Assembly: GCF_003334405.1 (NCBI RefSeq)
Contig: NZ_QOWM01000008.1
Length of the DNA stretch: 64,000 nucleotides
Source of the DNA: Escherichia coli
GTDB lineage: Bacteria; Pseudomonadota; Gammaproteobacteria; Enterobacterales; Enterobacteriaceae
Strand: one strand, 5' to 3'
Positions 1 to 56,781 of the stretch are shown here, piece by piece (the first letter of the stretch is position 1; every line of letters starts with the position of its first letter). The notes beneath the pieces were generated by a model, which saw only the letters and a list, made by a program, of their open reading frames with translations, was not told where the DNA came from and did no database searches. A program made the position numbers and the translations under genes.

Positions 1-1553
1 ACTGGGATGAAAGTGATGTCGTGTTAATTACCTATGCCGATCAATTTCACAGCAATGATTTAAAACCATTACCCACATTTAATCAGTTTTACCATCAATG
101 GCTGCAAAGCATTTTTTCACATGTTCATTTGTTGCCGTTTTATCCATGGTCATCTGATGATGGCTTTTCGGTAATTGATTATCATCAGGTCGCCAGTGAA
201 GCGGGGGAGTGGCAGGATATTCAGCAACTCGGTGAATGCAGTCATTTAATGTTTGATTTTGTCTGCAACCATATGTCGGCAAAAAGTGAATGGTTTAAAA
301 ACTATTTACAACAGCATCCAGGTTTTGAAGATTTTTTTATTGCCGTTGACCCGCAAACCGATCTCAGCGCCGTCACTCGCCCGCGTGCGTTACCGTTATT
401 AACGCCATTCCAGATGCGCGATCATTCAACGCGCCATTTATGGACCACCTTTAGTGACGATCAAATTGACCTGAATTACCGTAGCCCTGAAGTGTTGCTG
501 GCGATGGTGGATGTTTTACTCTGTTACCTTGCGAAAGGTGCTGAGTATGTCCGCCTGGATGCCGTTGGCTTTATGTGGAAAGAGCCGGGAACAAGCTGCA
601 TCCATCTGGAAAAAACACATCTGATTATCAAACTGTTACGGTCGATTATTGATAACGTTGCGCCAGGTACAGTGATCATTACCGAGACCAATGTTCCGCA
701 TAAAGACAACATTGCTTACTTTGGCGCAGGCGATGACGAAGCACATATGGTGTACCAGTTCTCGCTGCCGCCACTGGTGCTGCATGCGGTGCAAAAACAG
801 AACGTTGAGGCGCTTTGTGCGTGGGCGCAAAACCTGACACTACCTTCCAGCAACACCACCTGGTTTAACTTCCTCGCCTCTCACGATGGCATCGGGCTAA
901 ACCCGCTACGGGGCTTGTTGCCTGAAAGCGAAATATTAGAGCTGGTCGAGGCGTTACAGCAGGAAGGTGCATTAGTAAACTGGAAAAATAATCCCGACGG
1001 TACACGCAGTCCGTATGAAATAAATGTGACCTATATGGATGCGTTAAGCCGCCGTGAGAGTAGCGATGAAGAACGTTGCGCCAGGTTTATCCTTGCCCAT
1101 GCGATTTTGTTAAGTTTCCCCGGTGTGCCAGCGATATATATTCAAAGTATTCTTGGCTCGCGTAATGATTACGCAGGTGTCGAAAAAATCGGATATAACC
1201 GTGCGATTAACCGTAAAAAATATCACAGTAAAGAGATAACCCGAGAACTGAACGATGAAGCTACATTAAGGCATGCGGTATATCATGAGTTGTCGCGTTT
1301 AATTACACTTCGTCGCAGCCATAACGAGTTTCATCCGGATAATAATTTTACCATTGATACGATTAATTCATCCGTAATGCGTATTCAAAGAAGTAACGCT
1401 GATGGTAATTGTCTGACTGGATTGTTTAATGTCAGTAAAAATATTCAGCATGTAAATATTACTAATCTGCATGGTCGGGATCTGATTAGTGAAGTTGATA
1501 TATTGGGTAATGAAATAACGCTGCGCCCCTGGCAGGTTATGTGGATTAAATAA
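1..1553 (+). CDS. ycjM: Sucrose-phosphorylase-family (GH13) enzyme, glucosylglycerate phosphorylase; 5' end lies outside the window
   Basis: Frame is open from position 1 to the stop at 1553; translation recognised as E. coli YcjM; first gene of the ycj cluster. Confidence 0.85.
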   Translation, partial: WDESDVVLITYADQFHSNDLKPLPTFNQFYHQWLQSIFSHVHLLPFYPWSSDDGFSVIDYHQVASEAGEWQDIQQLGECSHLMFDFVCNHMSAKSEWFKNYLQQHPGFEDFFIAVDPQTDLSAVTRPRALPLLTPFQMRDHSTRHLWTTFSDDQIDLNYRSPEVLLAMVDVLLCYLAKGAEYVRLDAVGFMWKEPGTSCIHLEKTHLIIKLLRSIIDNVAPGTVIITETNVPHKDNIAYFGAGDDEAHMVYQFSLPPLVLHAVQKQNVEALCAWAQNLTLPSSNTTWFNFLASHDGIGLNPLRGLLPESEILELVEALQQEGALVNWKNNPDGTRSPYEINVTYMDALSRRESSDEERCARFILAHAILLSFPGVPAIYIQSILGSRNDYAGVEKIGYNRAINRKKYHSKEITRELNDEATLRHAVYHELSRLITLRRSHNEFHPDNNFTIDTINSSVMRIQRSNADGNCLTGLFNVSKNIQHVNITNLHGRDLISEVDILGNEITLRPWQVMWIK

Positions 1554-1566
1554 AAAGGAACATCTC

Positions 1567-2859
1567 ATGATTAAATCAAAAATCGTGCTGTTATCAGCAC
1601 TGGTTTCATGCGCCCTGATTTCAGGCTGTAAAGAAGAAAATAAAACGAATGTATCCATCGAATTTATGCATTCTTCGGTGGAGCAGGAGCGCCAGGCCGT
1701 TATCAGTAAATTGATTGCCCGTTTTGAAAAAGAAAACCCTGGCATCACCGTTAAGCAAGTGCCCGTGGAAGAAGATGCCTATAACACTAAAGTCATTACT
1801 CTTTCACGTAGCGGTTCGCTGCCGGAAGTGATCGAAACCAGCCATGACTACGCCAAAGTGATGGACAAAGAGCAGCTTATCGATCGCAAAGCGGTTGCCA
1901 CAGTCATCAGCAACGTTGGTGAAGGCGCGTTTTACGATGGCGTACTGCGTATTGTGCGTACCGAAGATGGTAGCGCATGGACCGGTGTTCCTGTCAGCGC
2001 CTGGATTGGCGGTATCTGGTATCGCAAAGATGTGCTGGCAAAAGCGGGGCTTGAGGAGCCGAAAAACTGGCAACAGCTGCTGGACGTTGCACAGAAACTG
2101 AATGACCCGGCGAATAAAAAATACGGCATTGCGCTGCCTACAGCAGAAAGCGTGTTGACGGAACAATCCTTCTCCCAGTTTGCGTTATCCAACCAGGCTA
2201 ACGTCTTTAACGCCGAAGGCAAAATCACCCTTGATACACCAGAGATGATGCAGGCACTGACCTATTACCGCGACCTTGCTGCCAACACTATGCCGGGTTC
2301 TAACGACATCATGGAAGTGAAAGACGCCTTTATGAACGGCACCGCGCCGATGGCGATTTACTCCACCTATATCCTTCCGGCTGTGATTAAAGAAGGCGAC
2401 CCGAAAAACGTCGGTTTCGTGGTGCCAACCGAGAAAAACTCTGCGGTCTACGGCATGTTGACCTCGCTGACCATTACCGCCGGGCAAAAGACCGAAGAGA
2501 CGGAAGCAGCAGAAAAATTTGTCACCTTTATGGAGCAGGCAGACAACATTGCCGACTGGGTGATGATGTCGCCAGGTGCTGCGCTGCCGGTGAATAAAGC
2601 GGTGGTGACTACCGCCACCTGGAAAGACAACGACGTTATTAAGGCGCTGGGTGAACTACCGAATCAGCTAATCGGTGAACTGCCAAATATTCAGGTTTTT
2701 GGCGCAGTAGGGGATAAAAACTTTACCCGCATGGGTGATGTGACGGGTTCTGGCGTGGTGAGTTCAATGGTGCATAACGTCACCGTGGGTAAAGCCGATC
2801 TCTCTACTACGCTGCAAGCGAGCCAGAAAAAACTGGATGAACTGATCGAACAGCACTAA
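1567..2859 (+). CDS. ycjN: ABC transporter periplasmic sugar-binding protein
   Basis: 430-aa ORF with N-terminal signal peptide and lipobox-like LISGC; sits directly after ycjM. Confidence 0.85.
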   Translation: MIKSKIVLLSALVSCALISGCKEENKTNVSIEFMHSSVEQERQAVISKLIARFEKENPGITVKQVPVEEDAYNTKVITLSRSGSLPEVIETSHDYAKVMDKEQLIDRKAVATVISNVGEGAFYDGVLRIVRTEDGSAWTGVPVSAWIGGIWYRKDVLAKAGLEEPKNWQQLLDVAQKLNDPANKKYGIALPTAESVLTEQSFSQFALSNQANVFNAEGKITLDTPEMMQALTYYRDLAANTMPGSNDIMEVKDAFMNGTAPMAIYSTYILPAVIKEGDPKNVGFVVPTEKNSAVYGMLTSLTITAGQKTEETEAAEKFVTFMEQADNIADWVMMSPGAALPVNKAVVTTATWKDNDVIKALGELPNQLIGELPNIQVFGAVGDKNFTRMGDVTGSGVVSSMVHNVTVGKADLSTTLQASQKKLDELIEQH

Positions 2860-2879
2860 ACCCAGGACAGGAATCCGCA

Positions 2880-3761
2880 ATGAACAGGCTTTTTTCAGGT
2901 CGTTCCGATATGCCCTTTGCGCTGCTGCTTCTCGCGCCCAGCTTATTACTGCTGGGCGGTCTGGTGGCGTGGCCGATGGTGTCGAATATCGAAATCAGTT
3001 TTTTACGTCTGCCGCTCAATCCCAACATCGAGTCAACGTTTGTTGGGGTGAGCAACTATGTGCGTATCCTCTCCGATCCCGGCTTCTGGCATTCGCTGTG
3101 GATGACGGTCTGGTATACCGCGCTGGTGGTGGCGGGCAGCACCGTGCTCGGGCTGGCGGTGGCGATGTTTTTCAACCGCGAGTTCCGCCTGCGCAAAACC
3201 GCGCGTTCGCTGGTGATCCTCTCCTACGTAACGCCGTCCATTTCGCTGGTGTTCGCCTGGAAATACATGTTCAACAACGGCTACGGCATTGTTAACTACC
3301 TCGGCGTCGATCTTCTGCATCTCTATGAGCAGGCACCGCTGTGGTTCGATAATCCGGGCAGTAGCTTTGTGCTGGTGGTGCTGTTCGCCATCTGGCGCTA
3401 CTTCCCGTATGCCTTTATCTCGTTTCTGGCGATTTTGCAGACCATCGACAAATCGCTGTACGAAGCGGCAGAGATGGATGGCGCTAATGCCTGGCAACGG
3501 TTTCGTATCGTCACGCTGCCCGCAATTATGCCGGTCCTGGCGACGGTGGTGACACTGCGCACCATCTGGATGTTCTACATGTTCGCGGATGTTTATTTGC
3601 TGACGACCAAGGTCGATATTCTCGGTGTATATCTCTACAAAACCGCCTTTGCCTTTAATGATTTAGGAAAAGCGGCGGCGATCTCGGTGGTGCTCTTCAT
3701 CATTATTTTCGCTGTCATTCTGCTGACCAGGAAACGGGTGAACCTCAATGGCAACAAATAA
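2880..3761 (+). CDS. ycjO: ABC transporter permease
   Basis: 293-aa multi-helix hydrophobic protein of the MalF/UgpA type; overlaps the next permease gene. Confidence 0.85.
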   Translation: MNRLFSGRSDMPFALLLLAPSLLLLGGLVAWPMVSNIEISFLRLPLNPNIESTFVGVSNYVRILSDPGFWHSLWMTVWYTALVVAGSTVLGLAVAMFFNREFRLRKTARSLVILSYVTPSISLVFAWKYMFNNGYGIVNYLGVDLLHLYEQAPLWFDNPGSSFVLVVLFAIWRYFPYAFISFLAILQTIDKSLYEAAEMDGANAWQRFRIVTLPAIMPVLATVVTLRTIWMFYMFADVYLLTTKVDILGVYLYKTAFAFNDLGKAAAISVVLFIIIFAVILLTRKRVNLNGNK

Positions 3762-4590
3762 ACGCACACTCAGTCGCATCGGTTTTTACTGCGAGCTGGC
3801 GCTGTTTCTCATCATCACGCTGTTTCCATTTTTTGTGATGCTGATGACCTCGTTCAAGGGCGCGAAAGAGGCGATCTCACTGCATCCTACGCTGCTGCCG
3901 CAGCAGTGGACGCTGGAGCATTACGTCGACATTTTTAACCCGATGATTTTCCCGTTTGTCGACTACTTCCGTAACAGTCTGGTGGTGTCTGTGGTTTCAT
4001 CCGTGGTGGCGGTATTCCTCGGCATTCTTGGGGCTTACGCGCTTTCCCGCCTGCGCTTTAAAGGTCGGATGACCATCAACGCCAGCTTTTACACGGTGTA
4101 TATGTTCTCTGGCATTTTGCTGGTGGTGCCGCTTTTCAAAATCATCACCGCGCTTGGCATTTACGACACTGAGATGGCGCTGATCATCACCATGGTGACG
4201 CAAACTCTGCCCACCGCCGTGTTTATGCTGAAAAGCTACTTCGACACCATCCCCGATGAGATCGAAGAAGCGGCGATGATGGATGGCCTCAACCGTCTGC
4301 AAATTATCTTCCGCATCACCGTGCCGTTGGCGATGTCCGGGCTGATATCCGTGTTCGTCTACTGCTTTATGGTGGCGTGGAACGACTATCTGTTTGCGTC
4401 GATTTTCCTCTCCAGCGCCAGCAATTTCACCTTACCGGTGGGCCTGAACGCGCTGTTCAGTACGCCAGATTACATCTGGGGACGGATGATGGCGGCCTCA
4501 CTGGTGACCGCATTGCCGGTGGTGATTATGTATGCGCTTTCGGAACGTTTTATTAAGAGTGGTTTGACCGCCGGTGGCGTGAAGGGCTAA
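3748..4590 (+). CDS. ycjP: ABC transporter permease
   Basis: 280-aa hydrophobic protein of the MalG/UgpE type; start overlaps the ycjO stop. Confidence 0.85.
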   Translation: MATNKRTLSRIGFYCELALFLIITLFPFFVMLMTSFKGAKEAISLHPTLLPQQWTLEHYVDIFNPMIFPFVDYFRNSLVVSVVSSVVAVFLGILGAYALSRLRFKGRMTINASFYTVYMFSGILLVVPLFKIITALGIYDTEMALIITMVTQTLPTAVFMLKSYFDTIPDEIEEAAMMDGLNRLQIIFRITVPLAMSGLISVFVYCFMVAWNDYLFASIFLSSASNFTLPVGLNALFSTPDYIWGRMMAASLVTALPVVIMYALSERFIKSGLTAGGVKG

Positions 4591-4620
4591 AGCGGCCAGT
4601 TTCTTTACAAGGAGTTTTAA

Positions 4621-5673
4621 ATGAAAAAGTTAGTAGCCACAGCACCGCGTGTTGCTGCGCTGGTTGAGTATGAAGATCGGGCGATTTTAGCTAATGAAGT
4701 GAAGATCCGCGTGCGTTTCGGCGCACCGAAACACGGAACGGAAGTGGTCGACTTCCGCGCCGCCAGCCCGTTTATTGATGAAGACTTTAACGGCGAATGG
4801 CAGATGTTCACTCCGCGTCCGGCAGATGCGCCGCGCGGCATTGAGTTTGGCAAATTCCAGCTTGGCAACATGGTGGTTGGCGACATTATCGAGTGCGGCA
4901 GCGACGTTACCGACTACGCGGTGGGCGACAGCGTATGCGGCTACGGCCCGCTCTCCGAGACGGTCATCATTAACGCAGTGAATAACTACAAGCTGCGCAA
5001 AATGCCGCAAGGCAGCTCCTGGAAAAACGCCGTCTGCTACGACCCGGCGCAGTTTGCCATGAGCGGCGTGCGCGATGCCAACGTGCGCGTAGGGGATTTT
5101 GTGGTGGTGGTAGGGCTTGGCGCAATCGGTCAAATTGCCATCCAACTGGCTAAACGCGCTGGCGCTTCTGTGGTGATTGGCGTCGATCCTATCGCCCATC
5201 GCTGTGATATTGCCCGTCGCCACGGCGCGGATTTCTGCCTTAACCCCATCGGCACTGATGTAGGTAAAGAGATCAAAACGCTGACCGGCAAGCAGGGTGC
5301 CGATGTGATTATCGAAACCAGCGGCTACGCCGACGCGCTGCAATCGGCGCTCCGCGGTCTGGCTTATGGCGGCACCATCTCCTATGTCGCGTTTGCCAAG
5401 CCGTTTGCCGAAGGTTTTAACCTCGGACGCGAAGCGCATTTCAATAACGCCAAAATTGTCTTCTCTCGCGCGTGCAGCGAACCGAACCCGGATTATCCGC
5501 GCTGGAGCCGCAAGCGTATTGAAGAAACCTGTTGGGAACTGCTGATGAACGGTTATCTCAATTGCGAAGATTTAATCGACCCGGTGGTGACCTTTGCCAA
5601 TAGCCCGGAAAGCTATATGCAGTATGTCGACCAGCATCCGGAACAGAGCATCAAAATGGGCGTTACGTTTTAA
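4621..5673 (+). CDS. ycjQ: Zn-dependent sugar dehydrogenase (MDR family)
   Basis: 350-aa ORF with a Rossmann GLGAIG motif; SD sequence AAGGAG upstream. Confidence 0.8.
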   Translation: MKKLVATAPRVAALVEYEDRAILANEVKIRVRFGAPKHGTEVVDFRAASPFIDEDFNGEWQMFTPRPADAPRGIEFGKFQLGNMVVGDIIECGSDVTDYAVGDSVCGYGPLSETVIINAVNNYKLRKMPQGSSWKNAVCYDPAQFAMSGVRDANVRVGDFVVVVGLGAIGQIAIQLAKRAGASVVIGVDPIAHRCDIARRHGADFCLNPIGTDVGKEIKTLTGKQGADVIIETSGYADALQSALRGLAYGGTISYVAFAKPFAEGFNLGREAHFNNAKIVFSRACSEPNPDYPRWSRKRIEETCWELLMNGYLNCEDLIDPVVTFANSPESYMQYVDQHPEQSIKMGVTF

Positions 5674-5691
5674 TTCAAAGGAATGAAAAAA

Positions 5692-6480
5692 ATGAAAATC
5701 GGCACACAGAATCAGGCGTTCTTTCCGGAAAACATTCTGGAGAAATTTCGTTATATCAAAGAGATGGGCTTCGATGGTTTTGAGATTGACGGCAAACTGC
5801 TGGTTAACAACATCGAAGAAGTCAAAGCGGCGATCAAAGAAACCGGTTTACCGGTGACCACCGCCTGCGGTGGCTATGACGGATGGATTGGCGACTTTAT
5901 CGAAGAGCGTCGTCTTAATGGCTTAAAGCAGATCGAGCGCATTCTCGAAGCGCTGGCAGAAGTGGGCGGTAAAGGCATCGTCGTTCCGGCTGCGTGGGGC
6001 ATGTTTACCTTCCGCTTACCGCCGATGACCTCGCCGCGTAGCCTGGACGGCGACCGCAAAATGGTGAGTGATTCCCTGCGCGTACTGGAACAGGTCGCCG
6101 CGCGTACCGGAACCGTGGTGTATCTCGAACCGTTAAACCGCTATCAGGATCATATGATCAACACCCTCGCCGATGCCCGCCGTTACATCGTCGAAAACGA
6201 TCTTAAACATGTACAGATTATCGGCGATTTCTATCACATGAATATCGAAGAAGATAACCTGGCGCAGGCGCTGCATGACAACCGCGACCTGCTCGGTCAT
6301 GTGCATATTGCGGATAACCATCGCTACCAGCCGGGCAGCGGCACCCTGGATTTCCACGCGCTGTTTGAACAGCTGCGCGCGGATAACTATCAGGGCTATG
6401 TAGTGTACGAAGGGCGTATCCGGGCGGAAGATCCTGCCCAGGCGTACCGTGATTCGTTGGCCTGGTTGCGTACCTGCTAA
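5692..6480 (+). CDS. ycjR: Sugar epimerase/isomerase, xylose-isomerase-like TIM barrel
   Basis: ORF 5683-6480; start placed at MKIGTQNQ by recollection of YcjR. Confidence 0.8.
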   Translation: MKIGTQNQAFFPENILEKFRYIKEMGFDGFEIDGKLLVNNIEEVKAAIKETGLPVTTACGGYDGWIGDFIEERRLNGLKQIERILEALAEVGGKGIVVPAAWGMFTFRLPPMTSPRSLDGDRKMVSDSLRVLEQVAARTGTVVYLEPLNRYQDHMINTLADARRYIVENDLKHVQIIGDFYHMNIEEDNLAQALHDNRDLLGHVHIADNHRYQPGSGTLDFHALFEQLRADNYQGYVVYEGRIRAEDPAQAYRDSLAWLRTC

Positions 6481-6489
6481 GAGGTCTTT

Positions 6490-7545
6490 GTGAAAAGTGC
6501 AATGACAAGCTCTCCGCTGCGGGTCGCGATAATAGGCGCAGGCCAGGTGGCGGATAAGGTTCATGCTTCGTACTACTGCACCCGCAACGATCTGGAACTG
6601 GTGGCTGTCTGTGACAGCCGCCTTTCCCAGGCGCAGGCGCTGGCAGAAAAATACGGGAATGCATCCGTGTGGGACGATCCGCAGGCCATGCTGCTGGCGG
6701 TGAAACCTGATGTGGTTAGCGTCTGCTCACCTAACCGTTTTCATTACGAACATACCCTGATGGCACTGGAAGCGGGCTGCCATGTGATGTGCGAAAAACC
6801 GCCCGCCATGACGCCAGAACAGGCGCGGGAAATGTGCGATACCGCGCGCAAACTGGGCAAGGTGCTGGCCTACGACTTTCACCATCGTTTTGCGCTCGAT
6901 ACGCAACAGCTGCGTGAACAGGTGACCAACGGCGTTTTGGGAGAGATTTACGTTACCACCGCCCGCGCCCTGCGTCGCTGCGGCGTTCCCGGCTGGGGTG
7001 TCTTTACCAATAAAGAACTGCAGGGTGGTGGCCCGCTGATCGACATCGGCATTCATATGCTGGATGCTGCGATGTATGTGCTGGGCTTTCCGGCGGTGAA
7101 AAGCGTGAATGCGCATAGCTTTCAAAAGATCGGCACGCAAAAGAGCTGTGGTCAATTTGGTGAGTGGGATCCGGCAACTTACAGCGTCGAAGATTCGCTG
7201 TTTGGCACCATTGAATTTCATAACGGCGGCATTCTGTGGCTGGAAACGTCATTTGCACTCAACATCCGCGAACAGTCGATTATGAACGTCAGCTTTTGTG
7301 GTGATAAAGCTGGTGCGACGCTGTTTCCAGCACATATCTACACCGATAACAACGGTGAATTAATGACGCTGATGCAACGGGAAATGGCAGACGACAACCG
7401 CCATTTGCGCAGCATGGAAGCCTTTATCAATCACGTACAGGGCAAGCCCGTGATGATAGCCGACGCCGAGCAGGGGTACATCATCCAGCAACTGGTGGCG
7501 GCGTTGTATCAATCCGCAGAAACAGGGACGCGTGTGGAATTATGA
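6490..7545 (+). CDS. ycjS: Gfo/Idh/MocA-family NAD-dependent oxidoreductase
   Basis: 351-aa ORF with N-terminal Rossmann motif IIGAGQ; GTG start. Confidence 0.8.
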   Translation: MKSAMTSSPLRVAIIGAGQVADKVHASYYCTRNDLELVAVCDSRLSQAQALAEKYGNASVWDDPQAMLLAVKPDVVSVCSPNRFHYEHTLMALEAGCHVMCEKPPAMTPEQAREMCDTARKLGKVLAYDFHHRFALDTQQLREQVTNGVLGEIYVTTARALRRCGVPGWGVFTNKELQGGGPLIDIGIHMLDAAMYVLGFPAVKSVNAHSFQKIGTQKSCGQFGEWDPATYSVEDSLFGTIEFHNGGILWLETSFALNIREQSIMNVSFCGDKAGATLFPAHIYTDNNGELMTLMQREMADDNRHLRSMEAFINHVQGKPVMIADAEQGYIIQQLVAALYQSAETGTRVEL

Positions 7546-9809
7546 CCAGGCCAGTAACGTTATCAGAACCCCATTTCAGCCAGCATACCCTGAACAAGTA
7601 TGCATCGCTGATGGCGCAGGGGAACGGCTATCTTGGGCTTCGCGCCAGCCATGAAGAAGATTACACGCGCCAGACGCGAGGGATGTATCTGGCGGGGCTG
7701 TATCATCGGGCGGGAAAAGGTGAAATCAACGAACTGGTGAACCTGCCTGATGTCGTGGGGATGGAGATTGCCATAAATGGTGAGGTTTTCTCGTTATCCC
7801 ACGAAGCCTGGCAGCGTGAGCTTGACTTTGCCAGTGGCGAATTACGCCGCAATGTTGTCTGGCGTACCAGCAACGGCTCAGGTTACACCATCGCCAGCCG
7901 TCGCTTTGTTTCGGCAGACCAACTGCCGCTCATTGCGCTGGAAATCACTATTACGCCACTGGACGCCGACGCGTCAGTGCTGATTTCAACAGGCATTGAC
8001 GCCACGCAAACCAATCACGGTCGCCAACATCTCGACGAAACCCAGGTGCGGGTGTTTGGTCAGCATCTGATGCAGGGGAGCTACACCACCCAGGATGGAC
8101 GCAGTGATGTGGCCATCAGCTGTTGCTGTAAGGTGAGCGGTGATGTGCAGCAATGCTATACCGCCAAAGAGCGCCGTTTACTGCAACATACCAGTGCGCA
8201 GCTTCATGCAGGCGAGACAATGACGTTGCAAAAACTGGTGTGGATCGACTGGCGGGATGACAGGCAAGCTGCTTTAGACGAGTGGGGCAGCGCGTCGCTT
8301 CGCCAGCTTGAAATGTGCGCGCAGCAGAGTTACGACCAACTTCTTGCAGCATCAACAGAAAACTGGCGTCAATGGTGGCAGAAACGTCGTATCACGGTAA
8401 ATGGCGGCGAAGCGCACGATCAGCAAGCGTTAGATTATGCGCTTTATCATCTGCGCATCATGACGCCTGCCCACGACGAGCGCAGCAGCATTGCGGCAAA
8501 AGGCTTAACCGGCGAAGGCTACAAAGGCCACGTTTTCTGGGATACAGAAGTATTTTTGTTACCGTTTCATCTGTTTAGCGATCCGACGGTTGCCCGAAGT
8601 TTACTGCGTTATCGCTGGCACAACTTGCCAGGCGCGCAGGAGAAAGCGCGACGCAACGGCTGGCAGGGCGCGCTATTTCCGTGGGAAAGCGCGCGCAGCG
8701 GCGAAGAAGAGACGCCGGAATTTGCCGCCATTAACATTCGCACCGGGCTGCGGCAAAAAGTGGCCTCGGCGCAGGCGGAACATCATCTGGTGGCCGATAT
8801 CGCCTGGGCGGTTATTCAATACTGGCAGACCACGGGGGATGAAAGTTTCATTGCGCATGAAGGCATGGCGCTACTTCTGGAGACGGCAAAGTTCTGGATT
8901 AGCCGCGCGGTGAGAGTTAACGATCGTCTGGAAATTCATGATGTTATTGGGCCAGACGAATATACCGAACATGTCAATAATAATGCATACACCAGCTATA
9001 TGGCCCGCTACAACGTTCAACAGGCGCTGAATATTGCCCGCCAGTTCGGCTGTAGCGACGATGCGTTTATCCATCGCGCCGAAATGTTCCTCAAAGAGCT
9101 ATGGATGCCAGAAATTCAGCCCGACGGCGTTTTGCCGCAGGATGATTCGTTTATGGCTAAGCCGGCGATTAATCTGGCGAAATACAAAGCGGCGGCGGGG
9201 AAGCAAACCATACTGCGGGATTATTCACGCGCAGAAGTGAACGAGATGCAGATCCTCAAACAAGCTGATGTGGTGATGCTCAATTACATGCTGCCGGAGC
9301 AGTTCTCAGCGGCATCGTGTCTTGCCAATCTGCAATTTTATGAACCGCGCACTATTCACGACTCGTCATTAAGTAAAGCAATCCACGGCATTGTTGCCGC
9401 ACGCTGTGGCCTGCTGACCCAAAGTTATCAGTTCTGGCGCGAGGGGACTGAAATCGATCTTGGTGCTGATCCGCATAGTTGTGATGATGGTATCCATGCT
9501 GCCGCAACTGGCGCTATCTGGCTGGGGGCGATTCAGGGTTTTGCCGGGGTGAGCGTGCGTGACGGTGAATTGCATCTCAATCCGGCGTTACCTGAGCAGT
9601 GGCAACAGTTGTCTTTCCCTCTGTTCTGGCAGGGCTGCGAATTACAGGTCACTCTTGACGCGCAGCGTATTGCGATTCGAACTTCTGCGCCCGTTTCACT
9701 GCGTTTGAACGGTCAGCTTATAACCGTGGCTGAAGAATCTGTTTTCTGTTTGGGTGATTTTATTTTGCCCTTCAATGGGACCGCTACCAAACATCAGGAG
9801 GATGAATGA
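7542..9809 (+). CDS. ycjT: GH65 kojibiose phosphorylase
   Basis: 755-aa ORF; start overlaps ycjS stop and stop overlaps ycjU start. Confidence 0.85.
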
Positions 9810-10465
9810 AACTGCAAGGGGTAATTTTCGATCTGGATGGTGTAATCACCGATACCGCGCATCTGCATTTCCAGGCGTGGCAGCAGATTGCCGCTGAAAT
9901 TGGCATCAGCATTGATGCGCAGTTTAACGAATCCCTAAAAGGGATCAGCCGCGATGAGTCTCTGCGGCGCATTCTGCAACACGGGGGCAAAGAGGGCGAC
10001 TTTAACTCGCAGGAGAGGGCGCAACTGGCGTATCGCAAAAATCTGCTCTATGTCCACTCACTACGCGAGTTGACGGTCAACGCTGTTCTACCCGGCATTC
10101 GCTCTTTGCTGGCAGATCTCCGTGCACAGCAGATCTCGGTTGGGCTGGCTTCTGTCTCCCTGAATGCGCCGACGATTTTAGCGGCGCTGGAGCTGCGCGA
10201 GTTTTTCACCTTCTGCGCGGATGCTTCCCAACTTAAAAACTCGAAACCGGACCCGGAAATCTTTCTCGCCGCCTGTGCAGGGCTGGGCGTGCCGCCGCAG
10301 GCATGTATCGGCATTGAAGATGCGCAGGCGGGCATTGACGCCATTAACGCCAGCGGTATGCGCTCGGTGGGGATCGGCGCGGGCTTAACCGGGGCGCAAT
10401 TACTGTTGCCTTCAACGGAATCACTCACCTGGCCGCGGTTATCGGCCTTCTGGCAAAACGTATAG
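9806..10465 (+). CDS. ycjU: Beta-phosphoglucomutase (HAD superfamily)
   Basis: 219-aa ORF with N-terminal HAD motif DLDGVITDT. Confidence 0.85.
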
Positions 10466-10478
10466 CAAAGGAATCAAC

Positions 10479-11561
10479 ATGGCTCAGCTTTCGTTACAAC
10501 ATATTCAAAAAATCTACGATAACCAGGTGCATGTGGTGAAGGACTTCAACCTGGAAATTGCCGATAAAGAGTTCATCGTGTTTGTCGGCCCGTCGGGCTG
10601 CGGTAAGTCGACCACCCTGCGCATGATTGCCGGGCTTGAGGAGATCAGCGGCGGCGATCTGTTGATCGACGGCAAACGAATGAATGACGTTCCAGCCAAA
10701 GCACGCAATATAGCGATGGTGTTCCAGAACTACGCGTTGTATCCGCATATGACGGTTTACGACAATATGGCGTTTGGTCTGAAGATGCAAAAAATCGCCA
10801 AAGAGGTGATTGATGAGCGGGTGAACTGGGCGGCGCAAATTCTCGGCCTGCGTGAGTACCTGAAACGTAAGCCGGAGGCGCTTTCCGGCGGGCAACGTCA
10901 GCGAGTGGCGCTTGGGCGGGCGATTGTACGCGAAGCGGGCGTGTTTTTAATGGATGAACCGCTCTCTAACCTTGATGCCAAGCTGCGCGTGCAAATGCGC
11001 GCAGAGATCAGCAAGCTGCATCAGAAACTGAACACCACCATGATCTACGTGACCCACGATCAGACCGAAGCGATGACCATGGCGACGCGGATTGTGATTA
11101 TGAAAGACGGGATTGTTCAGCAAGTAGGTGCGCCGAAAACCGTTTATAACCAACCCGCGAATATGTTTGTTTCCGGATTTATTGGATCACCAGCGATGAA
11201 TTTTATTCGCGGCACGATCGATGGCGATAAATTCGTTACGGAAACGCTTAAATTAACCATTCCCGAAGAGAAATTAGCGGTTCTGAAAACACAGGAAAGT
11301 TTGCATAAGCCCATCGTGATGGGAATACGACCGGAAGATATTCATCCGGACGCGCAAGAGGAAAATAACATTTCCGCCAAAATTAGCGTGGCAGAATTAA
11401 CCGGTGCGGAATTTATGCTCTACACCACGGTTGGGGGGCACGAGTTAGTGGTCCGTGCTGGTGCGTTAAATGATTATCATGCAGGAGAAAATATCACTAT
11501 TCATTTTGATATGACGAAATGTCATTTCTTTGATGCAGAAACGGAAATAGCAATTCGCTAA
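10479..11561 (+). CDS. ycjV: ABC transporter ATP-binding protein (MalK-like), intact
   Basis: 360-aa ORF with Walker A GPSGCGKST, signature LSGGQRQR and Walker B FLMDEP. Confidence 0.85.
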   Translation: MAQLSLQHIQKIYDNQVHVVKDFNLEIADKEFIVFVGPSGCGKSTTLRMIAGLEEISGGDLLIDGKRMNDVPAKARNIAMVFQNYALYPHMTVYDNMAFGLKMQKIAKEVIDERVNWAAQILGLREYLKRKPEALSGGQRQRVALGRAIVREAGVFLMDEPLSNLDAKLRVQMRAEISKLHQKLNTTMIYVTHDQTEAMTMATRIVIMKDGIVQQVGAPKTVYNQPANMFVSGFIGSPAMNFIRGTIDGDKFVTETLKLTIPEEKLAVLKTQESLHKPIVMGIRPEDIHPDAQEENNISAKISVAELTGAEFMLYTTVGGHELVVRAGALNDYHAGENITIHFDMTKCHFFDAETEIAIR

Positions 11562-11605
11562 ATACAGGGGGAAGGCATTCCCCCAGGATAATACAAGGAA
11601 CAATA

Positions 11606-12511
11606 ATGAAAAAGTTATTACCCTGTACCGCACTGGTGATGTGTGCGGGAATGGCCTGCGCACAGGCCGAGGAAAGGAACGACTGGCACTTTAATATCGG
11701 CGCGATGTACGAAATAGAAAACGTCGAGGGTTATGGCGAAGATATGGATGGGCTGGCGGAGCCTTCAGTCTATTTTAATGCCGCCAACGGGCCGTGGAGA
11801 ATTGCTCTGGCCTATTATCAGGAAGGGCCGGTAGATTATAGCGCGGGTAAACGTGGAACGTGGTTTGATCGCCCGGAGCTGGAGGTGCATTATCAGTTCC
11901 TCGAAAACGATGATTTCAGTTTCGGCCTGACCGGCGGTTTCCGTAATTATGGTTATCACTACGTTGATGAACCGGGTAAAGACACGGCGAATATGCAGCG
12001 CTGGAAAATCGCGCCAGACTGGGATGTGAAACTGACTGACGATTTACGTTTCAACGGTTGGTTGTCGATGTATAAATTTGCCAACGATCTGAACACTACC
12101 GGTTACGCTGATACCCGTGTCGAAACGGAAACAGGTCTGCAATATACCTTCAACGAAACGGTTGCCTTGCGAGTGAACTATTATCTCGAGCGCGGCTTCA
12201 ATATGGACGACAGCCGCAATAACGGTGAGTTTTCCACGCAAGAAATTCGCGCCTATTTGCCGCTGACGCTCGGCAACCACTCGGTGACGCCGTATACGCG
12301 CATTGGGCTGGATCGCTGGAGTAACTGGGACTGGCAGGATGATATTGAACGTGAAGGCCATGATTTTAACCGTGTAGGTTTATTTTACGGTTATGATTTC
12401 CAGAACGGACTTTCCGTTTCGCTGGAATACGCGTTTGAGTGGCAGGATCACGACGAAGGCGACAGTGATAAATTCCATTATGCAGGTGTCGGCGTAAATT
12501 ACTCGTTCTGA
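11606..12511 (+). CDS. ompG: Outer-membrane porin OmpG
   Basis: 301-aa ORF with signal peptide, beta-barrel-like alternating sequence and C-terminal YSF. Confidence 0.9.
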   Translation: MKKLLPCTALVMCAGMACAQAEERNDWHFNIGAMYEIENVEGYGEDMDGLAEPSVYFNAANGPWRIALAYYQEGPVDYSAGKRGTWFDRPELEVHYQFLENDDFSFGLTGGFRNYGYHYVDEPGKDTANMQRWKIAPDWDVKLTDDLRFNGWLSMYKFANDLNTTGYADTRVETETGLQYTFNETVALRVNYYLERGFNMDDSRNNGEFSTQEIRAYLPLTLGNHSVTPYTRIGLDRWSNWDWQDDIEREGHDFNRVGLFYGYDFQNGLSVSLEYAFEWQDHDEGDSDKFHYAGVGVNYSF

Positions 12512-12519
12512 TAATGGGC

Positions 12520-12605
12520 TAAATTGCCGGATGCGGCGCGAGTACTTTATCCGATCTATAAATGTAGGCCGGATAAGATGCGCTAGCATCGCATCTGGCA
12601 TTCAG
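12520..12605. repeat. REP/BIME-type palindromic elements
   Basis: Imperfect palindromes of the GCCGGATGCGGCG...CTTATCCGGCCTAC type between convergent ompG and ycjW. Confidence 0.6.
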
Positions 12606-12621
12606 GCAAGGTAGCTGGTAT

Positions 12622-13620
12622 TTATTTCAGCGTCATATGCGTGGCAACGGTAATATTCTGTGGTGACGGTTTTCCAGAAATTAAGCGGAATAATAACTCG
12701 CAGCTTTGTTGACCTAACTCCTGCGTCGGAACATCGATGCCGCCCGGTGCAGGCGTTAAAATAAATGACAGCGTTTCATTGCTATAACCCACCACCGCTA
12801 ACTGCTGCGGAATAGCAATATTTTTCTCTGCTGCCGCACGATAAATGCTCATTAATTTCAGGCTGTCAGTGGCAAACACCGCCTCAGGCAACGGTGACTG
12901 GCTTAATAATTGCCGTGCTGCTTTTAATGCAGTTTCATGGGTATAACCGCCATCAACAATCCATTCATCACGCACTGCAATATTATGCGCAGCCAGGCTC
13001 TGCTTATAACCATTAACGCGATCAACCGAAACATGGACATCAAGCGGAGCATGCAGGCAGGCAATATTTTGATGCCCACTTTCAATTAATGCATCGGTCA
13101 ACGCAATGCTGTCGCCAAAATTATCGGTATCGACAGAATAAACATGGGCATATTGACCTTCAACTTTGCCAATCACCACCACCGGAATATCATATTTATC
13201 GAGTTGGGCAAAAAATGACTCATCCGCTGGCGAACTGAGCATAATAATGCCTTTAATCATTTTCTGCTTAATTTTGCTTTCGCATTTTTGCAGATCTTCT
13301 GCCGGATTGTGCGACGTTTGTAATATCACGTCGAAACCTTCTTCTTCAGCTTTGGCGGTGATGGCATGCAAAACTTCAGAGAAAAACGGATTACCCGCCG
13401 TAGTTTTGGTCGAACGGGTAGAAATCACCATAATGGCATCAAAACCCGAAGAGGTCAGCGCGCGGGCCAGCTTGTTTGGCTGATACTGTAATTCTTCAAT
13501 GGCCCGTAACACTTTTTCGCGCGCTTCCGGGGAGATATTAGTTTGCTTATTCAGCACGCGTGATACGGTGGATTTTGATACGCCTGCAACCCTGGCAATA
13601 TCATAAATAGTAGGGGACAT
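12622..13620 (-). CDS. ycjW: LacI-family transcriptional regulator
   Basis: 332-aa ORF with N-terminal HTH ([21 protein letters not shown]) and periplasmic-binding-like body. Confidence 0.85.
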
Positions 13621-13775
13621 AGGTCAGGAACTCCGTCCGAACGTGAATGCTGCACATCTTATGGAGTTCGCCGGTCGATGACAACACGGGCAGTTGATAA
13701 TCAATGGCCTGGCCCCCACATTCATATCCTTACGAATGATTTTTTTTCTGGTCTTCAGAGCAGCACAGGACAGCA

Positions 13776-15173
13776 ATGAAGCGACTTAAAAATGAACTCA
13801 ATGCGCTGGTGAATCGGGGTGTCGACAGACATCTGCGCCTCGCTGTAACCGGACTTAGCCGCAGCGGCAAAACAGCGTTTATCACCGCGATGGTTAATCA
13901 GTTGCTTAATATTCACGCCGGAGCACGTTTGCCGCTGTTAAGTGCGGTGCGTGAAGAGCGCCTGCTGGGCGTGAAACGCATTCCCCAGCGTGACTTTGGC
14001 ATTCCGCGCTTCACCTATGACGAAGGGCTGGCGCAGTTATATGGCGATCCACCCGCCTGGCCAACGCCAACGCGCGGCGTCAGTGAAATCCGCCTGGCGC
14101 TACGTTTTAAATCGAATGATTCGCTGCTACGCCACTTTAAGGATACCTCCACGCTGTATCTGGAAATTGTGGATTATCCCGGCGAATGGTTGCTCGACCT
14201 GCCGATGCTGGCGCAGGACTATTTAAGCTGGTCGCGCCAGATGACGGGCTTACTCAATGGTCAGCGCGGAGAATGGTCGGCGAAATGGCGAATGATGAGC
14301 GAAGGGCTGGACCCGCTAGCGCCTGCCGACGAAAACCGGCTGGCGGACATTGCCGCCGCGTGGACCGATTATCTCCACCACTGTAAAGAGCAGGGGCTGC
14401 ACTTTATTCAGCCTGGGCGCTTTGTCTTGCCGGGAGATATGGCAGGTGCGCCCGCGCTGCAATTCTTCCCGTGGCCGGATGTCGATACCTGGGGCGAGTC
14501 CAAACTGGCGCAGGCCGATAAGCATACCAATGCCGGAATGCTGCGCGAGCGCTTTAATTATTACTGCGAGAAGGTGGTGAAGGGGTTCTATAAGAATCAT
14601 TTTCTGCGCTTTGACCGCCAGATTGTGCTGGTGGATTGCCTGCAATCTCTCAACAGTGGGCCACAGGCATTTAATGATATGCGTCTGGCACTGACGCAGC
14701 TGATGCAAAGTTTTCACTACGGGCAGCGTACCCTGTTCCGGCGTTTGTTTTCGCCGGTTATCGATAAGCTATTGTTTGCTGCCACTAAAGCGGACCATGT
14801 GACCATCGATCAGCACGCTAATATGGTTTCATTACTGCAACAACTGATTCAGGATGCCTGGCAAAATGCGGCGTTCGAAGGGATCAGCATGGACTGCCTG
14901 GGGCTGGCGTCAGTTCAGGCGACCACCAGCGGCATTATTGATGTTAACGGTGAGAAAATCCCGGCGCTGCGTGGTAATCGACTTAGCGATGGCGCACCGC
15001 TCACTGTTTATCCTGGCGAAGTTCCCGCACGTTTGCCTGGTCAGGCGTTCTGGGATAAGCAAGGCTTCCAGTTTGAGGCATTTCGTCCGCAGGTGATGGA
15101 TGTCGACAAACCACTACCGCATATTCGTCTTGATGCTGCGCTGGAATTTTTAATAGGAGATAAATTGCGATGA
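13776..15173 (+). CDS. ycjX: P-loop NTPase of unknown function (YcjX family)
   Basis: 465-aa ORF with Walker A GLSRSGKT; stop overlaps ycjF start. Confidence 0.85.
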
Positions 15174-16231
15174 CCGAACCGTTAAAACCACGTATTGATT
15201 TCGACGGTCCTCTGGAGGTCGATCAGAATCCTAAATTCAGGGCGCAGCAGACCTTTGACGAAAATCAGGCGCAAAATTTTGCCCCGGCCACGCTCGACGA
15301 AGCGCAGGAAGAAGAGGGGCAAGTCGAAGCGGTAATGGACGCAGCGTTACGTCCGAAACGCAGCCTGTGGCGCAAAATGGTGATGGGAGGGCTGGCTCTG
15401 TTTGGCGCAAGCGTTGTCGGGCAGGGTGTACAGTGGACAATGAATGCCTGGCAAACCCAGGACTGGGTGGCGCTGGGTGGATGTGCCGCTGGGGCATTGA
15501 TTATCGGCGCTGGCGTAGGTTCTGTGGTAACAGAGTGGCGGCGCTTATGGCGCTTGCGACAGCGCGCCCATGAACGCGACGAAGCGCGTGATTTATTGCA
15601 TAGCCACGGCACGGGCAAAGGCCGCGCATTTTGCGAAAAACTGGCGCAGCAGGCGGGTATTGATCAGTCGCATCCGGCGCTGCAACGCTGGTATGCCTCA
15701 ATCCATGAAACGCAAAACGACCGTGAAGTGGTCAGCCTGTATGCGCATTTGGTCCAGCCAGTTTTAGATGCCCAGGCGCGGCGCGAAATCAGCCGTTCGG
15801 CGGCGGAATCAACGTTGATGATTGCGGTCAGCCCGCTGGCGTTGGTCGATATGGCGTTTATCGCCTGGCGCAATCTGCGTTTAATTAATCGCATCGCCAC
15901 GCTGTATGGCATTGAACTGGGGTATTACAGCCGTTTGCGTCTGTTTAAGCTGGTATTGCTGAATATCGCTTTTGCCGGAGCCAGCGAACTGGTGCGCGAA
16001 GTGGGGATGGACTGGATGTCGCAAGATCTCGCTGCTCGTTTGTCTACCCGCGCAGCTCAGGGGATTGGTGCAGGACTTCTGACGGCACGACTCGGGATTA
16101 AAGCTATGGAGCTTTGCCGCCCGCTGCCGTGGATTGACGATGACAAACCTCGCCTCGGGGATTTCCGTCGTCAGCTTATCGGTCAGGTGAAAGAAACGCT
16201 GCAAAAAGGCAAAACGCCCAGCGAAAAATAA
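15170..16231 (+). CDS. ycjF: Inner-membrane protein of unknown function (YcjF family)
   Basis: 353-aa ORF with central hydrophobic helices; translationally coupled to ycjX. Confidence 0.85.
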
Positions 16232-25581: not shown

Positions 25582-25824
25582 TGTTTTATCAGGCTCCTCC
25601 AGATAATTGTCGTCATGCCGGAAACCCCTGGCGGGGCTATTTTACCGCGACAATTCATTCAGATCATCAATAGTCAGGGAAGGAAGTAGCAACATTAGCT
25701 AACTAATCAATGCGTTGATTGTAAATCCAGCTAAGAGGTGAGGTTTTCAGAGCAGACAACGGTGAAATGTCATGGTATTGTTACGTTTAGGTAACAAGAA
25801 ATTTGTCTGCACAAGGATTACATC

Positions 25825-34111: not shown

Positions 34112-34211
34112 CTGCATAAAAAAATAGAGTCTGTCGACATCCGCCAGACTCTACAGTACACACAGCAGTGCATCCGCGTCTTAAATCCGGCATTGTCTCC
34201 TCTGCGCCGGT
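34112..34211 (-). ncRNA. mcaS: McaS (IsrA) small regulatory RNA
   Basis: Minus strand reads ACCGGCGCAGAGGAGACAAUGCCGGAUUUAAGACGCGGAUGCACUGCUGUGUGUACUGUAGAGUCUGGCGGAUGUCGACAGACUCUAUUUUUUUAUGCAG, matching my recollection of McaS, with a terminal hairpin and U-run. Confidence 0.7.
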
Positions 34212-37588: not shown

Positions 37589-37710
37589 GCAGGTGAATGC
37601 AACGTCAAGCGATGGGCGTTGCGCTCCATATTGTCTTACTTCCTTTTTTGAATTACTGCATAGCACAATTGATTCGTACGACGCCGACTTTGATGAGTCG
37701 GCTTTTTTTT
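37589..37710 (+). ncRNA. fnrS: FnrS small RNA
   Basis: Sequence from GCAGGUGAAUGCAACGUCAAGCGAUGGGCG to the terminator hairpin GCCGACUUUGAUGAGUCGGC plus U8, matching recalled FnrS. Confidence 0.75.
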
Positions 37711-48656: not shown

Positions 48657-49127
48657 CTTATCTATCCCCTTAACGCCGGGTGTACAAATTTTGCGTTCAG
48701 CGGAAAACCTGGTACCGGGAAGAACCACTTAGCGGCAGCTATCGGGAATCGCCTGCTGAAAGACGGTCAGACAGTGATTGTGGTTACCGTGGCTGATGTT
48801 ATGAGTGCCCTGCACGCCAGCTATGACGACGGGCAGTCAGGCGAAAAATTTTTGCGGGAACTGTGCGAAGTGGATCTGCTGGTTCTTGATGAAATTGGCA
48901 TTCAGCGCGAGACGAAAAACGAGCAGGTGGTACTGCACCAGATTGTTGATCGCCGGACAGCGTCGATGCGCAGCGTGGGGATGCTGACAAACCTGAACTA
49001 TGAGGCCATGAAAACATTGCTTGGCGAGCGGATTATGGATCGCATGACCATGAACGGCGGGCGATGGGTGAATTTCAACTGGGAGAGCTGGCGTCCGAAT
49101 GTCGTCCAGCCAGGAATTGCGAAGTAA
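48648..49127 (+). pseudogene. ydaV: N-terminally truncated DnaC-like replication/helicase-loader gene (ydaV homologue); only the AAA+ half is present
   Basis: Homology begins at Walker A FSGKPGTGKNHLAAAI and runs through VDLLVLDEIG and the DnaC-like C-terminus; the N-terminal domain is absent and the 5' end overlaps the ydaG start. Confidence 0.6.
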
Positions 49128-49149: not shown

Positions 49150-49911
49150 ATGGAGACTGTTTTTGACGTACTGAAAGCAATGGGAAAAGCCACATCCATA
49201 GAACTTGCTGCGCGACTTGATATCAGTCGTGAAGAAGTGCTGAACGAACTATGGGAACTGAAAAAGGCTGGTTTCGTTGATAAAAGCGCGTACACCTGGC
49301 GTGTGGCTGATAACAACGTTCAGCAGGAACAGCCAGCGCCGGCAGAACTGCCGGAAGAAACTACCACGGCAACAGTCGCGAAAATTTCAGAGAGCGATTT
49401 AACTGCGACGATTGAACAACGTGGACCACAAACGGCGGATGAGCTGGCTACATTGTTTGGTACCACATCACGCAAAGTGGCTTCAACGCTGGCAATGGCA
49501 ATCAGCAAAGGTCGTCTGCTTCGCGTAAATCAGGGCGGTAAATTTCGTTACTGCATACCGGGCGATAATTTACCAGCAGAGCCGAAAGCAGCATCGGTAG
49601 CGGAAACTGCTGGTAAGGCCTTTCCTCAGCCCGCAGGTGTTGCGTTACCAGTACAGGAGGCTGCAACACAGGAAGATATTAAAACAGAAACTGTGGCGGA
49701 CATTGTGCAGTCGCTGCCATCGTTTACTGAAACGCGAGCGGATGACCTGGTTTTACCATCACTGCATATGGCAAACCGCGAACTGCGTCGGGCGAAAAAT
49801 CATGTCCAGAAGTGGGAGCGTGTCTGCGCCGCGCTGCGGGAGCTGAACAAGCACAGGGATATTGTACGACAGATTACTGATTCTTCCCGCCATGTTGCAT
49901 CGGAAAAGTGA
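49150..49911 (+). CDS. Prophage protein with two tandem winged-helix-like segments
   Basis: ORF 49099-49911; start placed at METVFDVLK after GGAG; two similar segments ([28 protein letters not shown] and [28 protein letters not shown]). Confidence 0.5.
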
Positions 49912-49926
49912 TTGCCGGAGGCACCT

Positions 49927-50349
49927 ATGGCAAAAGTATTTACACCAGAAGAGCGGGAAAAAATTAAAGGGCAGGTTGTTGAACTTGTACGTCTGAGCGG
50001 TCGCGAGACGTTACGGGCTCTGGAGGCTAAAACCGGTGCATCAAGGTATTACATAAGCACTCTCGCCAGAGAACTGGTCGCCAGTGGTGATGTTTACAAT
50101 TCAGGCTACGGATTATTCCCGTCTGAGCAGGCGCGTAAAGACTGGCAAAACGCCCGCAAAAAACTATCAAGGGCAAAGGTGAAGAAACCGGTTGTGGTTG
50201 ATCCTGACCTTATCTGGTCATTACCAGACGGAGAAATACGCCGTTACGACAGGCGTCTGAACATAATCTGTCGCGAGTGCCTGAAGAGAGAAGTTATGCA
50301 GCGTGTACTTGCGTTCTACCATGGAAATATTCAGGAGGTTGTGTGGTGA
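49927..50349 (+). CDS. Hypothetical prophage protein
   Basis: ORF 49912-50349; start placed at MAKVFTPEER after GGAGG; a 36-codon GTG-initiated ORF (50346-50456) with AGGAGG follows. Confidence 0.45.
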   Translation: MAKVFTPEEREKIKGQVVELVRLSGRETLRALEAKTGASRYYISTLARELVASGDVYNSGYGLFPSEQARKDWQNARKKLSRAKVKKPVVVDPDLIWSLPDGEIRRYDRRLNIICRECLKREVMQRVLAFYHGNIQEVVW

Positions 50350-50523
50350 ACAAGATTAACTATCCGTGGGTAGTCGCTGTCAATGCTTTACTTGCTGAAG
50401 TTCGGGCGGGCGCATTTAACGATCTTTGCGCGGAACAACTTCGTACGCATGAATAATTAAGTTAGCACTGTAAATAAAATTTAATCCTTAGCCGGAGGTA
50501 TTTCTGCACCCTCATAAAATCAG

Positions 50524-50547
50524 GAAACCGCCCGAAAGGGCGGTGGT
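50524..50547. terminator. Bidirectional intrinsic terminator between convergent prophage units
   Basis: Hairpin ACCGCCC-gaaa-GGGCGGT with T-rich flanks on both strands. Confidence 0.55.
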
Positions 50548-50555
50548 TTCATTGT

Positions 50556-51110
50556 TTAACTATCTAATATTGTGCTAAATCTTTTTATAACCATCAAGAA
50601 TGTTACTACGGTAAAAAAGAAGGATGAGTATGCTAAATAACTGATTATGTAAGCAGGGGTTGCGAAATACCATTTTTTTAATTCACTTGGGGTTTCTGGG
50701 AGAAAATATATTGCAACCGAAAAAATAACTAACGCTACAGATGTTAATATAGCATAAGAAACATTGTGACATAATTGCTCATATACGGTTTTATTATTAT
50801 TTAAAATTATTAGATTTGAACGTGGTTTGTTGTTTTCCTCAATGTCTGAAATTTTAAATACAGTTTTTTGTTTTTGATCGTAGATCATAATAACCGCGCT
50901 CATTAACAGTGCGGTAGTAATTGCTCCAAAGTTAACAAAAACAGATGCGATAGAGGTTTTCATTATCCCATAGGTAAAACATATGATTAATGATAATGTA
51001 AGAGGAATAATGAAGTGTATTGCGATGTCTTCGAGTAAAATATTTCCGCGTTGATCCGACATTGTTGTGTAATGTTTTTTTATTACACTCATTACGTTAA
51101 TCTTGTTCAT
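50556..51110 (-). CDS. Four-helix integral membrane protein (184 aa), downstream gene of an uncharacterised two-gene cassette
   Basis: Four hydrophobic segments of about 20 residues; start ATG overlaps the upstream gene stop (ATGA); AT-rich. Confidence 0.55.
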   Translation of the reverse strand: MNKINVMSVIKKHYTTMSDQRGNILLEDIAIHFIIPLTLSLIICFTYGIMKTSIASVFVNFGAITTALLMSAVIMIYDQKQKTVFKISDIEENNKPRSNLIILNNNKTVYEQLCHNVSYAILTSVALVIFSVAIYFLPETPSELKKWYFATPAYIISYLAYSSFFFTVVTFLMVIKRFSTILDS

Positions 51111-52039
51111 ATTTTTAATCCCCCATTACCACTATGTAACTCACTTAGTATATCATTCGCAATGATTTTAACAGTGTCATGAAGTGCTTTAAGATCGGGG
51201 ATTCCTGTAGATGCGTTTATGTTTAAGTCGTTATCATCTAATTCGGCAGAAATTCCTTTTCTTAAGATGGTGTCGTAATTAAAAATGACTGTTCTATTGC
51301 CTAATTGTAAACTAACTTTTATTGCGTCACACTTATCTTCAATTATTTCTATTATATTTCCTAGTTTTTTGTCTTTTAAGTCTTTAAAACTACCAAATAC
51401 GCCTTGATTTGCTTTTATTACCAAATCGGTTTTGATGTTTGTTTTGTTATTTCCGAATGAATCCGTGATGTCCTTTGGTGCTTTGTAACCTTGGGCTTTT
51501 ATTTGTTTTAATTCTGAATCAAGGATGTGTTGGGGGATTTTTTTGTGGCAAAGAGGATTGATTCTCGCTTCAAGTTTATATTTTGTTTTCAAGTGGTCTA
51601 GTAATGCATCAGAGAGTGTGCTGCGAGCAGAAATATTGTCATTAGCGTGAAATGCTATAATCCCTTCTTCTAAATTGTCTGGCAAAAATATTAAAATGTA
51701 ACGCTGTTTGAGAGTTACATCGTTGATAGTTGTTGTATAACGTATTTTAGTAAGTTTATCGTCTTTTATTTCACTGCTCTCACCATATTTCCCAACCTTT
51801 ACATATCCATATATTACTTGGTTTTGAGCATCAAAGGTGAGTGATGTGTGTTGTTCAAGAGAAACCTTTGTTTTCGAGAGACCAAATTCAATAGGTGTGT
51901 TTTTATAGCTATTAAAATACTCAACAAATAATTCATATGCTGTTTTTTTATCGCTTAAACCTAGGTTGTTTAGTCTTTTGCTGGTTCGGCTGCCCTTGTG
52001 GGTTAACACACGGAATGAATAGAAGTTAACGCTGTGCAT
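51107..52039 (-). CDS. Uncharacterised soluble Lys/Asn-rich protein (310 aa), upstream gene of the two-gene cassette
   Basis: No transmembrane segment or nucleotide-binding motif seen; AT-rich codon usage unlike flanking genes; coupled to the membrane gene. Confidence 0.55.
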   Translation of the reverse strand: MHSVNFYSFRVLTHKGSRTSKRLNNLGLSDKKTAYELFVEYFNSYKNTPIEFGLSKTKVSLEQHTSLTFDAQNQVIYGYVKVGKYGESSEIKDDKLTKIRYTTTINDVTLKQRYILIFLPDNLEEGIIAFHANDNISARSTLSDALLDHLKTKYKLEARINPLCHKKIPQHILDSELKQIKAQGYKAPKDITDSFGNNKTNIKTDLVIKANQGVFGSFKDLKDKKLGNIIEIIEDKCDAIKVSLQLGNRTVIFNYDTILRKGISAELDDNDLNINASTGIPDLKALHDTVKIIANDILSELHSGNGGLKI

Positions 52040-54512: not shown

Positions 54513-54592
54513 TTTCTTACGTATAAACTGCTTCAATTTTGCTATGCTTCGCAAAGCTGTATCGCGAGGCGGATTGCAGACATGGACATCGT

Positions 54593-56679: not shown

Positions 56680-56781
56680 ATTGCATCGTCTCCAGCATAT
56701 ATATCAATTAAGGCTCTGATTGATGTGTCTGAAAGCCTACACATAATAACTATGCCATCCGTTCCGTGCGGAGGTGAGGCT

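Follow-up and report, generated by a model that had tools for sequence, protein, structure and literature searches.

An intact ycjV gene in a close relative of Escherichia coli K-12: probably the ancestral-type ATPase gene of a CUT1-type importer, frameshifted in K-12

The window analyzed in this study, a stretch of 64,000 nucleotides of Escherichia coli DNA, contains an intact ycjV gene on the + strand (10479..11561). In all likelihood, this is the ordinary, ancestral-type ycjV of the species, and it is K-12 that carries the mutant form. Its product would be the ATP-binding subunit of a binding-protein-dependent sugar importer of the CUT1 type (MalK/MsmX-like). The gene is a known one in its ordinary state, and neither a novel type of gene nor a novel mechanism is revealed; the pseudogene status of ycjV in K-12 is already on record as an annotation.

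The ORF listing gave a single reading frame with an ATG start, 360 amino acids and no internal stop, confirming the uninterrupted gene that the original prediction had claimed. A Shine-Dalgarno-like sequence (AAAGGAA; 10467-10473) was found by inspection and ends 5 nt before the ATG. The three motifs claimed to be complete were all present: Walker A (GPSGCGKS; residues 37-44; 10587..10610, + strand), the ABC signature (LSGGQ; residues 135-139; 10881..10895, + strand) and Walker B including the catalytic Glu (VFLMDE; residues 155-160; 10941..10958, + strand). Together with Q83 of the Q-loop, the D-loop (SNLD; residues 163-166) and H193 of the H-switch, all six motifs of the nucleotide-binding domain (NBD; PF00005) were found in order. 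In the Pfam search, ABC_tran (residues 21-162, E = 2.3e-31) was followed by OB_MalK (residues 236-288, E = 6e-14, model positions 1-53 of 53) and TOBE_2 (residues 282-351, E = 1e-9, model positions 2-76 of 76), that is, the CUT1-type arrangement of MalK/MsmX/UgpC-like proteins, complete to the C-terminus. The protein scored 483.9 bits against the UgpC-type subfamily of NCBIfam (NF008653; cut-off 432), and 430.1 bits against the MalK equivalog (NF008233), below the cut-off of 568. The closest solved structure was MsmX from Bacillus subtilis (PDB 6YIR), which aligned over the full length of YcjV with an E value of 5.5e-149, and therefore the ORF is not a chance one; E. coli MalK (PDB 1Q12) matched behind MsmX (E = 6.6e-100). 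The same protein is deposited as WP_000057955.1 (360/360 residues; complete genomes from Mozambique and Japan), and was found on at least 1000 contigs of a large public protein collection, with the same Glu133. Within the ycjM-ompG cluster, the gene is flanked by ycjU/pgmB and ompG; this location and its near-identity to annotated YcjV identified it as the orthologue of the b1318 locus, and the gene order agreed with that of an annotated genome differing at 3 of 25000 bases.

In RefSeq NC_000913.3 (K-12 MG1655), ycjV b1318 (1380821-1381789) is annotated as a pseudogene, as the original prediction had stated, and likewise ymjB b4524 (1381789-1381902). The alignment with K-12 that had been proposed as a check located the lesion. 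The stretch is 1082 nt in K-12 (1083 nt in the window) with 99.7% identity at the DNA level, and there were three differences in total: T (C in K-12) at 10766, which is synonymous; A (G in K-12) at 10876, which gives Glu133 instead of Gly133; and one G in a run at codons 319-320 (11433..11438, + strand), which is GGGGGG in the window and GGGGG in K-12 by both the pairwise and the eight-allele alignments. The K-12 gene is thus neither intact nor of equal length: the 1-bp deletion at gene position 955 is a pseudogenizing -1 frameshift, by which the frame is lost after codon 319 and the product ends with Thr-Ser at 322 amino acids. The C-terminal segment of codons 320-360 (11436..11558, + strand) has no in-frame translation in K-12, and the ymjB annotation is an out-of-frame remnant of these last 41 codons. 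By the truncation, the TOBE_2 match loses about half of its length, from the C-terminal side, and the lost segment aligned throughout to the C-terminus of MsmX; the 322-residue product may reasonably be taken as inactive. The T at 10766 was found in no complete genome compared (best identity, 99.9%). In metabolic engineering of K-12, ycjV has been used as an integration locus, among insertion loci described as pseudogenes or non-essential genes (PMC11731478). The word "pseudogene" was absent from the ycj literature texts searched, and a literature search for ymjB gave nothing relevant.

The distribution of the two G-run alleles was estimated with allele-specific short exact probes against 5426 complete E. 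coli genomes, 4996 of which carry the ycjV locus. The six-G allele of the window (G6; 66-mer probe) was present in 4390 of these 4996, including BL21(DE3) and O157:H7, and the five-G allele of K-12 (G5; 65-mer probe) in 369. The sampled G5 carriers were MG1655, TG1, ER1709, NEB10-beta, laboratory-evolution clones and O16:H48 isolates, with chromosomes of 4.5-4.7 Mb; all eight named carriers were either K-12 laboratory derivatives or had K-12-sized chromosomes. These counts indicated that intact ycjV is the norm of the species and that the K-12 mutation is lineage-specific; for the same reason, the intact gene tells little about a strain beyond its not being a K-12 laboratory derivative. Comparison of the window gene with six divergent natural alleles (dN/dS, 0.018-0.071; dS up to 0.19) showed strong purifying selection on ycjV in natural E. 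coli. No ycjV match at all was obtained in about 430 of the 5426 genomes, and in two genomes only a "TOBE domain-containing protein" was annotated at this position. Strain 300709 has the same YcjV protein as the window, from an intact ycjV, together with a frameshifted ycjN (locus coordinates 3090-4381), suggesting that parts of the YcjNOP-V transporter are lost sporadically.

The only amino acid difference from K-12 upstream of the lesion lies two residues before LSGGQ. In the pairwise and eight-allele alignments, codon 133 was GAG (Glu; 10875..10877, + strand) in the window, and Gly in both K-12 (GGG) and six divergent lineages (GGC). By exact 61-mers, E133 was found in 108 genomes and K-12-type G133 in 1483. 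Glu133 is therefore a derived, minority allele of the sub-lineage of the window. Gly133 was also considered as a second defect of K-12, and was rejected because Gly is the majority and ancestral residue. Since Lys occupies the equivalent position in MsmX and one other close homologue, the site tolerates charge, and the G133E change is, judging from these alignments, probably neutral.

YcjV of BL21(DE3) (WP_000057985.1) is identical to that of the window at 359 of 360 residues, with G133E as the only difference, and its accession is the one listed for the YcjV assayed by Leisico et al. 2020 (PMC7658222); the published ATPase activity is accordingly that of the G133 form. When expressed in B. 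subtilis, this protein reportedly accumulated and retained ATPase activity, but did not replace MsmX: the msmX null mutant was not complemented (PMC7658222). The K-12 ycjV'/ymjB' pair is the same gene, differing by the G5 run and Gly133. MsmX, a multitask ATPase of several sugar importers in B. subtilis, has 64% identity with YcjV (PMC7658222) and shares its domain layout, whereas YcjV is encoded within its own transporter operon. Furthermore, in the alignment to the solved structure, YcjV has N77, Q104, V110 and G154 at the positions of D77, R104, E110 and K154 (MsmX numbering), which are conserved in MsmX-type multitask ATPases; these four differences are consistent with the failure to replace MsmX (PMC7658222), and set YcjV apart from the multitask type. 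MalK of MalFGK2 (PDB 1Q12 and 2R6G) has the family and the architecture of an NBD plus OB/TOBE in common with YcjV, but differs in locus and partner proteins, and YcjV remained below the MalK equivalog cut-off.

[quoted passage not shown] The proposed partners of YcjV are all intact: the substrate-binding lipoprotein YcjN (1567..2859, + strand; 430 amino acids, T238A relative to K-12), and the permeases YcjO (2880..3761, + strand; 293 amino acids, identical to K-12) and YcjP (3748..4590, + strand; 280 amino acids, G16E relative to K-12). The outer-membrane porin gene ompG, the last of the operon (11606..12511, + strand), and ycjW (12622..13620, - strand), which encodes the LacI-type repressor of the operon (function from PMC6599011), are identical to those of K-12. 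No internal stop was found in ycjN, ycjO, ycjP, the catabolic genes, ompG or ycjW, and a functional importer is therefore reasonable. Regarding the original prediction that the importer should be functional, the part concerning the genes stands, every partner being full length, while transport itself is a prediction. We infer transport by YcjNOP-V, its substrate and the assembly of YcjV with YcjOP.

YcjW represses ycjMNOPQRSTUV-ompG (Luhachack et al. 2019, PMC6599011). ChIP peaks of YcjW, with a 14-nt motif, were found in two places, one upstream of ycjM and the other in the ycjT-ycjU interval, and the repressor is freed by kojibiose in vitro (PMC6599011). Under laboratory conditions, repression of the operon is tight, and its genes stay silent as long as ycjW is present (PMC6599011), so that the importer need not be active even where the ORF is intact. 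[quoted passage not shown] At the 3' end of ycjT (9776..9789, + strand), the window contains the 14-mer TGGGACCGCTACCA, an imperfect palindrome centred on CG, which is an exact match (14/14) to the K-12 14-mer that precedes the ycjM start codon by 13-26 nt; from this match, it is probably the second YcjW operator, ahead of ycjU-ycjV-ompG. A promoter and terminator scan around ycjV gave sites no more numerous than in shuffled sequence, and the + strand of the ycjV-ompG interval yielded no terminator. The 44-nt gap between these two genes contains a 7-bp GC-rich hairpin, GGGGGAAGGCATTCCCCC (11567-11584), which, having no + strand T-tract, is not a typical terminator; the interval showed no difference from K-12.

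The window was collinear with K-12 1370343-1411000, with 13 substitutions and one G over 39.4 kb (99.96% identity across 1370343-1396043). The nearest complete genome was that of WP5-S17-ESBL-10, with 3 differences over the first 25000 bases. In the ynaI-ynaJ gap, a single CTAA (25699-25702) marks an empty IS5 site, where K-12 has CTAA-IS5F-CTAA. No insertion sequence was found in the 64-kb window, and IS5 gave no match by blastn. The absence of insertion sequences claimed in the original prediction thus held, with the IS5F site empty and IS5Y missing, and so did the non-K-12 background, on the grounds of the empty IS5F site and a different variant of the Rac prophage (see below). The strain is not K-12, yet a very close relative of it (13 SNPs in 39.4 kb). 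The bases at 9217, 10766 and 14646 differed from both K-12 and WP5-S17-ESBL-10; 9217 leads to L559R in the kojibiose phosphorylase YcjT, and 14646 to P291S in YcjX. Within the ycj cluster region (window positions 1-15659), eight of the nine substitutions relative to K-12 were nonsynonymous: two in ycjM, and YcjN T238A, YcjP G16E, YcjS I299M, YcjT L559R, YcjV G133E and YcjX P291S. Such an excess is expected from very recent divergence.

A Rac-type prophage lies at ttcA (approximately 40359-64000 of the window), in a variant unlike the K-12 Rac and without IS5Y. In place of the recT/5' recE region it has a segment without a K-12 match (42441-44817), and there is no equivalent of K-12 1419483-1422277 (racR, ydaS, ydaT, ydaU and 5' ydaV), the flanking matches overlapping by 7 bp at 48676-48682. 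Additional lambdoid DNA of about 7.9 kb (49599-57511) is collinear with a stretch of strain 64EVA in which a Hok/Gef toxin, essD and rrrD are annotated. Positions 37000-62006 were collinear with 64EVA apart from its own IS421 and a 2.6-kb stretch missing from the window, and 62007-64000 contains phage J-like and tail-fibre sequence. An ORF of 373 amino acids (61595-62716) is an apparent fusion between the N-terminus of a terminase small subunit and a lambda J-like tail-tip C-terminus, suggesting deletion of the head and tail genes of the prophage. Rfam detected McaS (34116-34211, - strand) and FnrS (37589-37706, + strand), and, in the prophage, RalA (42016-42194, + strand), sok antitoxin RNA (52295-52470, + strand) and STnc100 (55259-55445, + strand).

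A mechanism of the MalK type is proposed for YcjV from its family membership. The binding protein YcjN would deliver a sugar to the permeases YcjO and YcjP, beneath which two copies of YcjV would sit by analogy with MalFGK2. This pair would close on two ATP, each held between the Walker A motif of one YcjV and the LSGGQ of its partner, and hydrolysis at Glu160/His193 would drive the permeases to release the sugar that YcjN had brought. Cohesion of the dimer would come from the C-terminal OB/TOBE domain, through which regulatory signals could also act. The gene itself is part of the YcjW-repressed ycjMNOPQRSTUV-ompG operon, downstream of the probable second copy of the YcjW operator. In K-12, slippage of one G in the G6 run would have caused the frameshift after codon 319 and the loss of the last 41 residues, while the strain of the window, as a close non-K-12 relative, would never have acquired this lesion.

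Two other explanations of the G-run difference concern the run itself. Single-base differences in homopolymer length are a common sequencing artefact, and G6 or G5 could in principle be an error in the window or in the K-12 reference, respectively. However, exact G5 occurs in 369 records, including the independently named MG1655, TG1 and ER1709, the matching 322-residue product has been deposited from K-12-type records (e.g., BAA14893.1), and G6 was obtained in 4390 genomes from many platforms; this explanation is effectively refuted. It is also very improbable that the run is a slippage-prone contingency switch, of which K-12 represents the reversible OFF phase. A mononucleotide run is certainly a typical substrate of slipped-strand mispairing, but phase variation at high frequency would call for a run longer than six G, and the confinement of G5 to K-12-like carriers among those named, with natural strains overwhelmingly G6, suggests one historical event rather than switching.

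The remaining alternative accepts the intact ORF, and holds that the importer is non-functional or irrelevant in this strain owing to G133E, to permanent repression by YcjW, or to MalK or UgpC serving YcjOP instead. We regard this as unlikely, while somewhat less so than the switch. On G133E, E133 is a derived, minority allele, but Lys is found at this position in two active or solved homologues, and the E133 protein recurs on the public contigs described above (at least 1000). Also in favour of the alternative are the silence of the operon in the presence of ycjW (PMC6599011) and the frameshift in ycjN of strain 300709, whose YcjV protein is the same as here. On the other hand, whole-gene dN/dS values of 0.02-0.07 show that selection maintains ycjV in natural E. 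coli. That several CUT1 importers can share one ATPase is known for the MsmX-type proteins of Firmicutes, whereas the one published test did not show YcjV and MalK to be interchangeable as multitask ATPases (PMC7658222). An intact, ancestral-type ycjV, mutated in K-12, is thus the reading that we prefer.

Under this preferred reading, intact ycjV marks the strain of the window as a natural-type relative of K-12, and not a K-12 laboratory derivative. A caution follows for work on this cluster: the gene for the motor subunit of YcjNOP is broken in widely used K-12 strains and intact in approximately nine of ten complete genomes bearing the locus. Since K-12 thereby departs from the norm of the species, physiology of the ycj cluster (kojibiose, glucosylglycerate, gulosides and OmpG) studied in K-12 only may miss transport-dependent phenotypes. 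A more speculative extension, to which we assign a low probability, is that the ycjV frameshift partly explains why K-12 is a poor model for ycj, and that an intact or repaired strain might import, and grow on, the true substrate. If true, intact ycjV, or ycjV restored by one G, would make it possible to identify what YcjNOP-V transports.
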